This document shows positions 7,549 to 11,992 of a stretch of 64,000 nucleotides of DNA, piece after piece (the stretch's first letter is position 1; each line of letters starts with the position of its first letter). The notes beneath the pieces are model-generated. The model did no database searches. It was not told the origin of the DNA and saw nothing but the letters and a program-made list of their open reading frames with translations. The position numbers and the translations under genes are program-made. The stretch lies in the NCBI GenBank assembly GCA_001940995.1, contig MSHC01000001.1:61028-125027 (forward strand), read 5' to 3'. The DNA comes from Ruminococcus sp. Phil15. GTDB taxonomy: Bacteria > Bacillota > Clostridia > Oscillospirales > Ruminococcaceae.

Positions 7549-7570
7549 TCCTTAAAACGTGTAGTATATC

Positions 7571-7604
7571 AATCGCCGTCAAGTTATCTTGACGGCGATT
7601 TTTG
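7571..7604 (+). terminator. intrinsic terminator of the hyd operon
   Basis: 13-bp stem AATCGCCGTCAAG/CTTGACGGCGATT, loop TTAT, followed by a T run. Confidence 0.7.
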
Positions 7605-7662
7605 CTTCTCAGCTTTTGACAAATTTAGCCGCATCAGAATAATACGGATTTCTTACATAAAT

Positions 7663-7701
7663 AAAGAAGCAGTACTTTTTTCGTACTGCTTCTTTATTTT
7701 T
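7663..7701. terminator. bidirectional stem-loop terminator
   Basis: 13-bp stem AAAGAAGCAGTAC/GTACTGCTTCTTT flanked by an A run and a T run. It may serve pheA on the minus strand. Confidence 0.6.
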
Positions 7702-7808: not shown

Positions 7809-8678
7809 TCATTCCGAAGCGTCGGAGATTTCGCTGTAAATGCCAAGCACCTCAAGCTTTGAGAGATATCCCTCTAGTTCTGAAATAAGCGACTTGGTTT
7901 CCGCGTCCGAAAGCCTCGCCTCAAAATCAATGTAGAACAAAAACTCGAAGTCCGTGCCGGGAATAGGCCTGCTCTCAATTTTTGTCAGATTGACTCCACG
8001 CTGTGCGAAAATGCCCAGAAGTCCGTAAAGCGAGCAGGGCTTGTGCGGGAGTGAGCAAACAATGCTGAATTTGTCCGAGCCGTCGTATACTACGGGACTT
8101 TTGCTTATGCAGATAAACCTCGTGCAGTTGTACTGTGCGTCCTGAATGCCAATGGCGAGAGGTTTAAGCCCGTATATCTCCTTGCACTGAATGGAGCAGA
8201 TCGCCGCCAGATCATCTCTGCCGCTCTCCGCCACAAGTCTTGCCGCGAGCGCCGTGTTCGAGCATACAGTTACCTTTATGTGCGGGTGACTCTTAATAAA
8301 TTCCGAGCATTGACCGATTGCCTGCTCGTGGGACAGAATTTCGGTAATGCCCGAAAGCCGTGAGCTTTCCCTGCCCAGAAGATTGTGGGTAATGGAAATC
8401 TTCACCGCCTTGACAATTCCGAAGCTGTGCTTTTGCATAAGGTCGTAAACAGCCGTAACAGAGCCGTGCGTGCTGTTTTCAATGGGCAGTATTCCATACT
8501 GACACATTCCGCTTTCTACCGCAGAAAACACTGCAGAAAAGCTTTTGAAGAACATAATGTCAGGGTCGGTAAAAAGCGTCCTGCAAGCTGTTTCCGAGTT
8601 TGAGCCTGCAATGCCCTGACAGGCTACAACCGACTTATGTGGGAATGGGTCTGCCGCTCTCTTGATTTCAATATCCAT
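7809..8678 (-). CDS. pheA: prephenate dehydratase with C-terminal ACT domain
   Basis: Signature TRF and ESRP motifs (NCTRFICI, KIESRPIPG). The start abuts the aroF stop. Confidence 0.9.
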   Translation of the reverse strand: MDIEIKRAADPFPHKSVVACQGIAGSNSETACRTLFTDPDIMFFKSFSAVFSAVESGMCQYGILPIENSTHGSVTAVYDLMQKHSFGIVKAVKISITHNLLGRESSRLSGITEILSHEQAIGQCSEFIKSHPHIKVTVCSNTALAARLVAESGRDDLAAICSIQCKEIYGLKPLAIGIQDAQYNCTRFICISKSPVVYDGSDKFSIVCSLPHKPCSLYGLLGIFAQRGVNLTKIESRPIPGTDFEFLFYIDFEARLSDAETKSLISELEGYLSKLEVLGIYSEISDASE

Positions 8679-8679
8679 T

Positions 8680-9690
8680 TTAGTACATTTCCTTTACTAT
8701 GCCGTGAAGCGTGTGAATCTGCTTTGCAAGAGTGTCGAAGCTGTCGGGAGTGATAGACTGAGCGCCGTCGCACTTTGCGTGGCGGGGGTCGTTATGCACC
8801 TCGATGATAAGTCCGTCAGCGCCCGCCGCAACTGCCGCAAGCGACATAGGCTTTACCATAGCGGCAATACCCGTTGCGTGGCTTGGGTCGATGATTACAG
8901 GGAGATGCGTCTTTTCCTTGAGTACCGGGATTGCGGAAAGGTCAAGCGTGTTTCTTGTAGCGGTTTCAAATGTCCTGATACCTCTCTCGCAGAGAATAAC
9001 CTTTTCGTTTCCGCCTGCCATAATGTATTCGGCGCTCATAAGAAGCTCTGAGATAGTAGCAGCAAGACCACGCTTTAAGAGAATAGGCTTGTCGGTCTTG
9101 CCGAGAGCCTTTAAAAGCTCGAAGTTCTGCATATTTCTTGCGCCGACCTGAATAATGTCAACGTTGTCGAAAAGCGGAAGCTGTGAAAGGTCCATTATCT
9201 CGGTTATGATAGGAAGCCCCGTCTTTTCCTTAGCCTCAATAAGAAGGTCAATACCGTCTGCACGAAGTCCCTGGAATGCGTAAGGCGAGGTTCTCGGCTT
9301 GAATGCGCCGCCCCTTAATACAGTAGCGCCCGACTCCTTTACAGACTGTGCAATAGAGCAGATCTGTTCCTCCGACTCAACAGAGCATGGGCCTGCCATA
9401 ATCGTGAAGGTGCCTCCGCCGACAGTCGTGTCGCCCACCTTGATTACTGTGTCATCTGGGTGGAACTTGCGGTTTGCCTTCTTGTAAGGCTCCTGGATTC
9501 TTTTGACGGATTCTACAATGTCAAGCGCTTCGAGAAGCTCAATGTCAACCGAGCTTGTGTCGCCTACAAGACCAAGGACGGTCGAGTGAGAGCCTTTGAT
9601 CGTCTGAATGTCAAGGTCGTGCGAGGTGAGCCAGTCGGTGAGGTGGGCAAGTTGTTTTTCGTCTGTGTTCTGCTTGAGTACGATAATCAT
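8680..9690 (-). CDS. aroF: 3-deoxy-7-phosphoheptulonate (DAHP) synthase, type I-beta, with N-terminal ferredoxin-like regulatory domain
   Basis: Core sequences [31 protein letters not shown] and IIDPSHATG. An N-terminal extension of about 70 aa resembles the Thermotoga-type enzyme. Confidence 0.9.
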
Positions 9691-9708
9691 TTGATAATCC
9701 TTCTTTCT

Positions 9709-9745
9709 TAAATTAAAAGAGCCTCGGCAACATCGTTACCGAGGC
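9709..9745 (-). terminator. leader (attenuator) terminator upstream of aroF
   Basis: The minus strand reads GCCTCGGTAAC-GAT-GTTGCCGAGGC (11-bp stem) followed by TCTTTTAATTT. It ends about 20 nt before the aroF RBS. Confidence 0.7.
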
Positions 9746-9776
9746 GAAAAATGAACGTTGATTTGTTTCAATTCAT

Positions 9777-9863
9777 TCAAGCTTTTCGGCAACGCAAATC
9801 GGACCTTTCAAAAAATGAAAAGCCAAAAAAGACGTTAAAAAAGTTGAACGACGAATTATGCAT
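9777..9863 (-). CDS. Phe-rich leader peptide MHNSSFNFFNVFFGFSFFERSDLRCRKA (28 codons, 8 Phe)
   Basis: ATG at 9863 lies 8 nt downstream of GGAGA, and TGA is at 9777-9779. The ORF sits between a consensus promoter and the leader terminator. It is too short for the ORF track. Confidence 0.6.
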   Translation of the reverse strand: MHNSSFNFFNVFFGFSFFERSDLRCRKA

Positions 9864-9899
9864 GGCGATAATCTCCGGAAAAATTATTTTACAGGCTTT

Positions 9900-9928
9900 A
9901 TTTTATCATATTAGCACAGTGTTGTCAA
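9900..9928 (-). promoter_or_regulatory. sigma-A promoter of the aroF-pheA leader
   Basis: The minus strand reads TTGACA-17 nt-TAAAAT. Confidence 0.6.
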
Positions 9929-10028
9929 TGTAAGAATATTATTATTTTATATGAATAAATCGTATGGGCTTGTGCAAAATCTACAATCATGCACTCAAAA
10001 AAACTCGAAAACGCACAATTCTAATTCG

Positions 10029-10057
10029 TTGACTTTGCTTTTTGCAAATGTTATACT
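10029..10057 (+). promoter_or_regulatory. promoter of surface-protein gene A
   Basis: TTGACT-17 nt-TATACT. Confidence 0.55.
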
Positions 10058-10108
10058 TATATAGTACGGGAGCGAGTCCGTATAATATTTTTATAAGGGA
10101 GAAATATT

Positions 10109-10972
10109 ATGAAATTTAAAAAGGTTTTTGCAGTTTTAGCTGCATCGGCAATGGCTCTTGCAACAATGACAACAACAGCATTTGCAGATGAGCCGACAGT
10201 ATATGGTCAGGCAGGTATCTCTTTCCAGGTAAGAGACTCATGGGAACACCGTGACGCAGTAGGCGTTGCCGCATTCGACGAGACGGGCGAAGCAGAGCTT
10301 TACTCCGTCTATAAGGACGTTAATATCACAGGCAACGGCGATTATTCGGTTTCTATGGAAGGCTGGGCTTGCGACTGGAACGAAGCGATCCTCGGCTGGC
10401 TTATGGTAGACACAACTCTCGCAACAAATAAGGACGCAGATAATGTCGTAACTGTCGCAGATTATCCTGAAATGACGCTTACAATCACAAGTTTCTCAAT
10501 GGACGGCAAGGATTATTCAGCAGAGAACCTCGAAATTCTTGCAGAGCAGAACAACAGCTCGCTCGCTTGCTGGAAGATTGTAAATTCCTGGGGACAGGTA
10601 GAAGATCCAAGAGGTATGGACGATATGGTATGGGCAACTACCGACCCCGTAACAATCAACTTCACGATCGCAGGACTTCCTACCGATAAGGTAACGGACG
10701 GCTCCGATGTTATTGAGTTCGTATCAGGCGAAAAACCTGTTGACGAGCCTGAGTCAAGCGTAGCAGAGGACAGCTCCGAAGAGCCTGCTTCCTCTGAAGC
10801 AACAGAGTCCGTAGAGGACGAAAGCAAGGCAGACGAATCTTCCGTAGCAGCAGAAAGCTCATCTGAAGCAGAAAAGGAAGAAAGCTCTAAGCTTCCATTT
10901 ATTCTCGGCATCGGCGCAGGCGTTATCGTTGTAGTTGCGGCCGCAATAGTTGTAATTAAAAAGAAGAAGTAA
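10109..10972 (+). CDS. secreted protein of unknown function with acidic Ser/Glu linker and C-terminal TM tail anchor
   Basis: Signal peptide MKFKKVFAVLAASAMALATMTTTAFA, and C-terminus LPFILGIGAGVIVVVAAAIVVIKKKK. I recognised no family. Confidence 0.7.
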   Translation: MKFKKVFAVLAASAMALATMTTTAFADEPTVYGQAGISFQVRDSWEHRDAVGVAAFDETGEAELYSVYKDVNITGNGDYSVSMEGWACDWNEAILGWLMVDTTLATNKDADNVVTVADYPEMTLTITSFSMDGKDYSAENLEILAEQNNSSLACWKIVNSWGQVEDPRGMDDMVWATTDPVTINFTIAGLPTDKVTDGSDVIEFVSGEKPVDEPESSVAEDSSEEPASSEATESVEDESKADESSVAAESSSEAEKEESSKLPFILGIGAGVIVVVAAAIVVIKKKK

Positions 10973-10989
10973 TTATTAGCAATCTTAAA

Positions 10990-11025
10990 TCGGCGGACAA
11001 TTTGTCCGCCGAATTTTCTATTTTT
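10990..11025 (+). terminator. intrinsic terminator
   Basis: Stem CGGCGGACAA/TTGTCCGCCG followed by a T-rich tract. Confidence 0.6.
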
Positions 11026-11043
11026 CGCGAATTTGACAAACCG

Positions 11044-11055
11044 GAAAACGTTTTC
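11044..11055. promoter_or_regulatory. perfect 12-bp palindrome GAAAACGTTTTC (cre/LacI-family-like operator)
   Basis: The same 12-mer recurs at 13035-13046. It sits in the spacer of a possible distal promoter (TTGACA-17 nt-TTATGC), about 65 bp upstream of the main -35 of gene B. Confidence 0.45.
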
Positions 11056-11114
11056 TTATGCAACTTTTACAAAAATGGATAAAAATTTTATCTCTTATGT
11101 TAATGGAAAATGTG

Positions 11115-11143
11115 TTGACTTTTTAAAAATGCAGTGCTATAAT
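11115..11143 (+). promoter_or_regulatory. promoter of surface-protein gene B
   Basis: TTGACT-17 nt-TATAAT. Confidence 0.6.
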
Positions 11144-11197
11144 GATTACAGAATCGTTACACGATTCGATAACAAAATTTTAATGGAGGAAATAACA

Positions 11198-11992
11198 ATG
11201 AAAAAGATTCTTGCTTCTATCGCAGCTCTCGCAGTAGCTTCAACTATGGCTGTATCTGCATTTGCTGCAACAACACTTGCAGGCGTTGATGAATACGTTG
11301 GCGACTGGAGTGCATCATGTTTCGTTGACGCTGAGGGCAATGTTGTTAATTATATTGACAATGCTTACTTTGCTGATTATCTCGACACAGGTTGTACAGT
11401 AACAATAACCTACGACTACAAGACACTCGCAGGTGCTTACTATGAATACTACCTCTTCAGTGTATGCGATCAGTCTTGGGCTAAGCTTGCTGCTACTGAC
11501 GCTTCCTACGTCGCAGGCGTTCCGACTGAAGATGAGGCTAGAGTTACAAAGGGCGGCGAAACTAAGCTTTATGAAGGCACATCAGTTCCTGTTTATAAGT
11601 ACTTCACACAGTCTGACGGATTCACAGTATTCTGCCAGAATGACGGCGCTTGGACAGGCGATACTTTCAAGTTCACACTTACAGCTGATTGCCTCAAGTA
11701 CCTCGCTGAAAACCCATCAACCGGCGATGACGGTTCAGAGTGGGGCGGTATCGTATTCCAGACATACGGCATCGACGTTAAGAGCATCACAATTGACGCT
11801 GTAGACGACACTATCATTGACTTCGCTACAAATGCTAATCCTAACGCTGGCACAGATGACCCAGCTGATGACCCGGCAGACGATGACAAGACTGACGATG
11901 AGAACAAGCCAACAGGCGCTTCCGCTGGTCTTGCACTCGCTGCAATCGCTCTTGCAGGCGCTGCAGTAGTTGCTACTAAGAAGAACAAGTAA
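11198..11992 (+). CDS. secreted cell-surface protein of unknown function with C-terminal PTGA-type sorting-signal-like tail
   Basis: ATG at 11198 follows GGAGGA; the ORF-track start at 11033 is an extension. Signal peptide is MKKILASIAALAVASTMAVSAFA. C-terminus is KPTGASAGLALAAIALAGAAVVATKKNK. It is a paralog of the protein at 12123-12950. Confidence 0.75.
   Translation: MKKILASIAALAVASTMAVSAFAATTLAGVDEYVGDWSASCFVDAEGNVVNYIDNAYFADYLDTGCTVTITYDYKTLAGAYYEYYLFSVCDQSWAKLAATDASYVAGVPTEDEARVTKGGETKLYEGTSVPVYKYFTQSDGFTVFCQNDGAWTGDTFKFTLTADCLKYLAENPSTGDDGSEWGGIVFQTYGIDVKSITIDAVDDTIIDFATNANPNAGTDDPADDPADDDKTDDENKPTGASAGLALAAIALAGAAVVATKKNK

Follow-up and report, generated by a model that had tools for sequence, protein, structure and literature searches.

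The leu/phe leader of Lactococcus (Rfam RF01743) is a leader-peptide attenuator of a Firmicute, for which our literature search returned papers on bacteriocins only. Other leader-peptide attenuators reported or predicted in this phylum include His leaders in the Bacillus cereus group, Peptostreptococcaceae and Erysipelotrichales (PMC2965389, PMC9413887), a Leu-rich attenuator peptide of ilv-leu in Staphylococcus aureus (PMC5794164), and the bmrCD leader peptide of Bacillus subtilis (PMC4191407). Upstream of aroF itself, the uORFC-13-1 motif (Brewer et al. 2021) comprises a Phe-codon upstream open reading frame (ORF) in Acholeplasma, for which a ribosome-speed mechanism was proposed (PMC8632094), and in Corynebacterium glutamicum an attenuator with Phe-Tyr-Phe codons (aroR-aroF; Neshat et al. 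2014, summarized in PMC11802643) shows more read-through under Phe limitation. Here we describe the region upstream of the aroF-pheA operon in a 64-kb stretch of DNA from Ruminococcus sp. Phil15 (contig MSHC01000001.1; the whole stretch is called the window below), which an earlier note had read as a Phe attenuator. The rarity of such control in Firmicutes that this note implied was overstated, given the examples already described there.

Judged from its sequence and from comparison with relatives, the element is very probably a classical ribosome-mediated (leader-peptide) attenuator through which the level of charged tRNA-Phe would govern the expression of aroF-pheA. Each computational check that the earlier note had put forward came out in favor of this reading. 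It combines an ORF preceded by a Shine-Dalgarno (SD) sequence, a cluster of cognate codons, and what we predict to be a terminator, an antiterminator and an anti-antiterminator with an appropriately placed stop codon.

Anatomy of the aroF-pheA leader

The features of the leader and its operon are collected in Table 1. The consensus promoter that the earlier note had recognized is present, and it additionally carries an extended −10 TG at 9908-9907 on the minus strand; transcription probably starts near 9893. The 28-codon mini-ORF with its eight Phe codons was likewise confirmed. These occupy codons 6, 8, 9, 12, 13, 15, 17 and 18, the peptide contains no Tyr, and each of the three U6 runs of the ORF corresponds to two in-frame UUU codons. 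An ATG ORF with at least 8 Phe in 13 codons occurred in 1/5000 dinucleotide shuffles of the 240-nucleotide (nt) leader. The stop codon UGA (9779-9777) sits within region 2, 86 nt upstream of the aroF ATG at 9690, and the aroF SD sequence AAGGA (9702-9698) is located outside the terminator hairpin. This hairpin, described earlier as an 11-bp GC-rich stem with a U tract just before aroF, was recovered at 9745-9710 with a folding energy of −18.1 kcal/mol; its stem GCCTCGGTAAC-GAT-GTTGCCGAGGC contains 7/11 GC pairs and is followed by TCTTTTAATTT. Pfam domains bear out the identity of both genes (3-deoxy-D-arabino-heptulosonate-7-phosphate (DAHP) synthase; prephenate dehydratase with an ACT domain). 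The two-gene operon ends after pheA, since a convergent [FeFe]-hydrogenase gene comes next.

Table 1. Features of the leader and operon in window coordinates.
Feature	Position	Strand	Evidence or remark
Sigma-70-type promoter, TTGACA (9928-9923), 17 nt, TAAAAT (9905-9900)	9900..9928	-	11/12 consensus matches
SD sequence GGAG of leader ORF	9873..9876	-	9 nt 5′ of ATG at 9863
Leader ORF, 28 codons + stop: MHNSSFNFFNVFFGFSFFERSDLRCRKA	9777..9863	-	Kept in relatives with 76-96% identical AroF
Regulatory Phe cluster, 8 Phe codons (7 UUU, 1 UUC), codons 6-18	9810..9848	-	
Region 1, 5′ strand of anti-antiterminator helix, codons 5-11	9832..9851	-	Minimum-energy folds
Inner hairpin from distal Phe codons (GGCUUUUCA...UGAAAGGUCC), inside helix 1:2	9800..9826	-	Minimum-energy folds
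Region 2, core CGUUGCCGA at 9794-9786; pairs with region 1 or region 3	9773..9795	-	
Region 3, UCGGUAACG in terminator 5′ arm; 3′ strand of 9-bp antiterminator	9734..9742	-	
Intrinsic terminator (3:4), 11-bp stem 9745-9721 and U-rich tract 9720-9710	9710..9745	-	
aroF, DAHP synthase type I-beta, N-terminal ferredoxin-like domain	8680..9690	-	PF00793 1e-77, PF18152 1e-21
pheA, prephenate dehydratase + ACT domain	7809..8678	-	PF00800 3e-55; directly 3′ of aroF

Three alternative helices and their conservation

The leader RNA folds with a z-score of −4.2, better than all 200 shuffles. Its full-length minimum-energy fold combines a 20-bp helix between regions 1 and 2 (9851-9832 with 9795-9773; helix 1:2) with the terminator 3:4. 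The segment CGUUGCCGA (9794-9786) in region 2 is also complementary to UCGGUAACG (9742-9734) in region 3, and the resulting antiterminator 2:3 and the terminator came out of the folding as mutually exclusive. Thus, of the 1:2, 2:3 and 3:4 logic proposed in the earlier note, 2:3 (GCGTTGCCGA/TCGGTAACG) and 3:4 hold, but the partners given for 1:2 do not: GGCTTTTC with GAAAAGCT is unused in the minimum-energy fold, where codons 5-11 pair with 9795-9773 instead and GGCUUUUC forms a local hairpin with GAAAGGUCC. A pairing comparable to GGCTTTTC/GAAAAGCT appears in the relative L169.

Folding of partial transcripts showed that regions 1 and 2 alone adopt helix 1:2 as their minimum, and that 10/11 bases of the terminator 5′ arm pair upstream when the segment is folded up to the end of this arm. 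We also folded nascent RNA ending with region 3 under an imposed 28-nt ribosome footprint. Whichever of the eight Phe codons carried the footprint, the full antiterminator resulted (8-9/9 pairs); a ribosome at codon 24 or on the stop left 0/9 antiterminator pairs.

Conservation analysis showed that the window AroF is also encoded on a contig of a metagenome-assembled genome (MAG) at NCBI (GCA_965313935.1), together with an identical leader peptide ORF. Among relatives with 76-96% identical AroF, every traced contig harbors an aroF-pheA operon with a Phe-dominated leader, and these close-clade leaders have FFGFSFF as a common core and end in a shared tail, SDLRCRK(A/S), e.g., MYNSSFNFFNFFFGFSFFGRSDLRCRKA and MYILNARFFNSFFGFSFFERSDLRCRKS. 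In an alignment of 10 close-clade sequences (A2), 97% of the antiterminator cells are standard pairs compared to 26-61% in slid controls, two pairs show double changes, and 3/500 shuffles score as high. The terminator is paired in 92% of cells with compensatory changes in 6/11 pairs, a score that 0/500 shuffles reach. Covariation in A2 therefore backs helices 2:3 and 3:4. Helix 1:2 is found in the minimum-energy folds of 10/10 A2 members, where it is built from differing sequences such as UCGUUCAA/UUGAAUGA and AACGCUC/GAGCGUU.

A covariance model (R1), built from the close clade on its RNAalifold consensus, of which the inner hairpin is part, gave one real match in the window, namely the attenuator itself (158 bits). 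Moreover, R1 matches 22 of the distant Phe/Tyr leaders at E ≤ 0.01, each of them where it was expected, which argues that the window element is a homologous member of a wide family.

Two relatives with 79-80% identical AroF carry tandem attenuators upstream of aroF-pheA (L170:1275-1600 and L171:1028-1322), consisting of two successive Phe-rich leader ORFs, each with its own terminator. The ORFs of L170 encode MLYSSTRFESFWSFMFFGFVFFDKACRVAVKQM followed by MNSVLINSISFTFFWGFAFFFARLD, and R1 matches both copies.

Phe/Tyr leaders upstream of aroF in Clostridia, and the flanks of the operon

An AroF scan of one genome per GTDB species yielded 80 loci with 65-75% identity, nearly all of them in Clostridia MAGs, which belong to Oscillospiraceae, Acutalibacteraceae, Ruminococcus, Lachnospiraceae, Limiplasma and others; cultured carriers are Angelakisella massiliensis (L041) and Ruminococcus sp. 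zg-924 (L045). We counted as a leader any mini-ORF that starts with ATG and has six or more Phe/Tyr within 12 codons. Among the loci whose sequence extends 300 nt upstream, 59/77 carry one, e.g., MKRNLFAAEYFYFNFAYFFGKAF… and MLNNVFTAAYFYFYFIK, compared to 1.5% of shuffles and 0/77 on the reverse strand. At 57/58 analysed loci, the stretch from the mini-ORF stop to aroF contains a terminator (−10.8 to −27.8 kcal/mol), and an SD-like motif precedes 47/58 family leaders versus 20% of the remaining ATGs of these regions. The Phe- or Phe/Tyr-rich mini-ORF plus terminator, whose conservation in orthologs the earlier note had suggested to look for, is thus conserved upstream of aroF across Clostridia. 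Family leaders are 17-42 amino acids (aa) long and stop at a median of 31.5 nt 5′ of the terminator; apart from the Phe/Tyr run, neither the sequence nor the length of the peptides is well conserved.

Terminator 5′ arms of the family pair with the preceding segment over 67% of their bases, compared to 49% in shuffles (mean z −0.83, n=58), and pairing at the own locus beats that with arms of other loci (Wilcoxon p = 2.6e-4). The MAFFT consensus of the wide family, …UUUGCAGCUGAAUAC… / …UUUGCUGCAAAA… / …CCGCAGUG-loop-CACUGCGG…UUUUU, shows the four-region logic. RNAalifold returned no structure for the 57-sequence MAFFT alignment (A1), which was too gappy; in its place we relied on per-locus folds, permutation tests and the 10-sequence close-clade alignment.

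Clustering of the downstream genes showed that most relatives have the order aroF-tyrA-aroB-aroA and some aroF-aroB-aroA-aroC, while operons of the window clade consist of aroF-pheA. Of the Phe and Tyr codons in the leader, the fraction that specifies Tyr is 0.44 at loci with tyrA (n=43), 0.23 at those with aroB-aroA-aroC (n=9) and 0.10 at pheA-only loci (n=11); the difference between the tyrA and pheA-only groups is significant in a Mann-Whitney test that ignores kinship among loci (p = 3.6e-7). A Tyr share that tracks operon content is a prediction of a sensor that would read codons, unlike an RNA that binds a protein or ligand.

Searches for known RNA and peptide families found neither a T-box nor a riboswitch; the earlier note had seen no T-box sequence either. 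Rfam 15 gave no match at gathering score across the whole window, and at E ≤ 10 no T-box, riboswitch or leader family was detected in 9400-10300, including Phe_leader, leu-phe_leader and the Trp, His, Thr and Leu leaders; the matches at this cut-off were noise only (bxd_5, Spot_42, osmY and freshwater-2, none of which came near its gathering score). The T-box covariance model (RF00230) is unmatched in the window, a negative that is meaningful because the same search detects a T-box in locus L074. No family named uORFC-13-1 appeared in the Rfam 15 scan of the window, and no model in Pfam or NCBIfam matches the leader peptides.

Loci without a Phe/Tyr leader include L014, L015, L018, L027, L028, L030, L036, L039, L048 and L074-L076. 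We considered the T-box as a substitute there, but none lies upstream of aroF among 15 such loci; the sole T-box found (L074:5259-5503) is located ~1.2 kb downstream of aroF.

It is slightly more likely than not that the window element belongs to a large uncatalogued family of Phe/Tyr leader attenuators which forms the predominant control of aroF operons across gut and rumen Clostridia (Oscillospiraceae, Acutalibacteraceae, Ruminococcaceae, Lachnospiraceae and others). Such a family would take the place of T-box or TRAP control, its codon mix would evolve with operon content (Phe only with aroF-pheA; Phe and Tyr with tyrA), and tandem duplication would be possible.

A contig binned as a Victivallaceae MAG (L025) carries a 70%-identical aroF with a Phe/Tyr leader and terminator typical of Clostridia, suggesting mis-binning or horizontal transfer. 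In an aroF-tyrA relative (L174:2312-2500), ~190 nt of GC-rich sequence separate the leader terminator from aroF, compared to ~36 nt elsewhere; Rfam detected nothing in this spacer, which possibly holds a second regulatory element. A metagenome scan with PheA returned relatives of at most 58% identity, mostly apart from aroF and without Phe-rich upstream ORFs.

On the distal side of the window operon, 7552-7701 contains two strong hairpins between the hydrogenase gene (ends 7548, plus strand) and pheA (ends 7809, minus strand). One is a 13-bp stem (7571-7600), the other an AT-rich palindrome of 17 bp (7659-7699), and they are probably terminators for both transcription units. The same region gave a weak R1 match (14 bits) that is probably spurious. 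Divergent from the aroF promoter, 10029-11992 (plus strand) encodes two ORFs of 287 and 319 aa without a Pfam domain, preceded by a promoter-like site (10029-10057) and a small hairpin (10064-10083); this upstream area resembles freshwater-2 RNA below threshold (23 bits versus a gathering score of 49.9, E = 0.45).

Proposed mechanism, alternatives and known systems

In the mechanism that we infer, the leader ORF would be translated from a transcript starting ~30 nt upstream of it, and the regulatory output would be set by ribosome stalling and a kinetic competition among the three helices. If Phe is sufficient, the ribosome would pass the eight Phe codons and reach the UGA; since this codon lies inside region 2, the terminating ribosome would mask region 2, the 3:4 hairpin would form, and polymerase would stop at the U tract ~20 nt before aroF. 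Without translation, region 1 would pair with region 2 once both are made, which would leave region 3 free to form the terminator. If charged tRNA-Phe is scarce, the ribosome would stall in the Phe run, melting helix 1:2 and the inner hairpin, so that region 2 is exposed and CGUUGCCGA could pair with UCGGUAACG before region 4 is transcribed, resulting in read-through into aroF-pheA.

Several points weigh against this reading. In ribosome-free nascent RNA extending to region 3 (9734-9851, minus strand), the antiterminator form reaches −36.2 kcal/mol compared to −32.6 kcal/mol for the 1:2 form, i.e., before region 4 the 2:3 form is favored by 3.6 kcal/mol. Termination without translation would therefore depend on folding kinetics, requiring either kinetic persistence of helix 1:2 or a polymerase pause. 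In the full-length RNA, the terminator form is the minimum in every case, a stalled ribosome included, and thus read-through would rely on kinetics as well. Both stability results together imply that the attenuation decision must be kinetic, as in other attenuators. Ribosome-mediated attenuation moreover works only if the first ribosome stays close behind RNA polymerase, and transcription and translation are reportedly uncoupled in Bacillus subtilis (Johnson et al. 2020); with such uncoupling, an attenuator of this kind would need a polymerase pause. At the level of the family, about a quarter of the orthologous aroF loci carry no Phe/Tyr leader, and the correlation of leader composition with operon content ignores phylogeny, the pheA-only group being essentially one clade.

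Alternatively, the switch could be real but set by an RNA-binding protein, an uncharged tRNA or a metabolite, with the U-rich ORF as an untranslated by-product. Such control has precedent, as T-box or TRAP regulation is common for aromatic amino acid genes in Firmicutes, and the conserved peptide tail (…SDLRCRKA) partly coincides with region 2 RNA, so that RNA constraints do shape the ORF. We nevertheless regard this explanation as improbable: even at E ≤ 10 Rfam 15 offers no T-box or riboswitch match, the ATG, SD sequence and reading frame are kept while the sequence diverges, all three U6 runs are in frame, and the stop codon is placed inside region 2. Furthermore, the replacement of Phe by Tyr codons follows the presence of tyrA, which an RNA sensing a ligand or protein would not predict. 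A somewhat smaller chance still attaches to the idea that the leader ORF acts on translation, e.g., by reinitiation or delivery of ribosomes to aroF, instead of on termination. Leader genes have been proposed to raise downstream translation (PMC4833913), and some attenuators sequester the ribosome-binding site without termination (PMC9413887). This does not fit well with a GC-rich hairpin and U tract in 57/58 loci that undergo compensatory changes, with the 86 nt between the leader stop and the aroF ATG, or with an aroF SD sequence outside the hairpin. That the mini-ORF encodes a functional small peptide, which its hydrophobicity would allow, or that the whole arrangement is a product of chance in T-rich intergenic DNA, where Phe codons arise easily and 5 Phe in 13 codons occur in 6% of shuffles, is very improbable given the single shuffle in 5000 with eight Phe, peptides of 17-42 aa that are poorly conserved beyond the Phe/Tyr run and match no Pfam or NCBIfam family, and an ORF that always lies between promoter and terminator upstream of aroF.

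With the leader-peptide attenuator as the preferred reading, the locus would explain the control of phenylalanine synthesis specifically in the source organism, and the family offers a concrete, testable mechanism for control of entry into the shikimate pathway in many uncultured gut and rumen Clostridia. A leader codon mix that shifts with operon content would be a clean natural example of how attenuator specificity evolves. If the family is functional, pause-synchronized coupling of transcription and translation would operate widely in Clostridia; because attenuation needs coupling, a widespread family in this class bears on how general the uncoupling mentioned above for Bacillus subtilis is. 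For annotation, the family mini-ORFs are at present either uncalled or called as hypothetical genes, and the signature of SD sequence, ATG, Phe/Tyr run, terminator and aroF could enter annotation resources. The Phe/Tyr leader family has no model in Rfam, Pfam or NCBIfam. The literature searched, which mostly excluded subscription journals, contained no description of such aroF leaders in Clostridia; an earlier account, e.g., from comparative genomics of the early 2000s, is possible.

Compared to known systems, the locus would follow the same principle as the leader attenuators of Firmicutes, in which a Gram-positive host controls a terminator through a leader ORF sensed by the ribosome. Those systems serve other amino acids and operons, none of them matched the window in Rfam, and none concerns aroF of Clostridia. 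The C. glutamicum aroR attenuator likewise places Phe and Tyr regulatory codons ahead of aroF (PMC11802643); it differs in its actinobacterial host and in having three regulatory codons only, and no sequence relationship is expected. The uORFC-13-1 motif is similar in its position upstream of aroF and in its order of promoter, ribosome-binding site, start codon, Phe-coding U run and immediately following terminator (PMC8632094). It is known from Acholeplasma and environmental sequences only, with 24 representatives and ‘at least one’ Phe (PMC8632094), whereas the window element, compared here with the published description of the motif, has eight Phe codons, occurs in a member of the Clostridia and is part of a wider Phe/Tyr family.

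There is also a likeness to E. coli pheL-pheA and trpL, with which the element shares a short SD-preceded ORF, a run of Phe codons, the alternative helices 1:2, 2:3 and 3:4, a terminator before a gene of the Phe pathway, and a stop codon near or in region 2; in E. coli the output is set by tRNA-Phe charging (PMC11802643, PMC3082878). In contrast to E. coli pheL, the leader comprises 28 codons instead of 15, the operon begins with DAHP synthase, the host is an uncultured Clostridia bacterium, and sequence or covariance-model similarity is lacking in the comparison with the Rfam leader families at E ≤ 10. Thus, the mechanism itself is not new but of the pheL/trpL kind, and what is new are this example and the apparently uncatalogued family to which it belongs.

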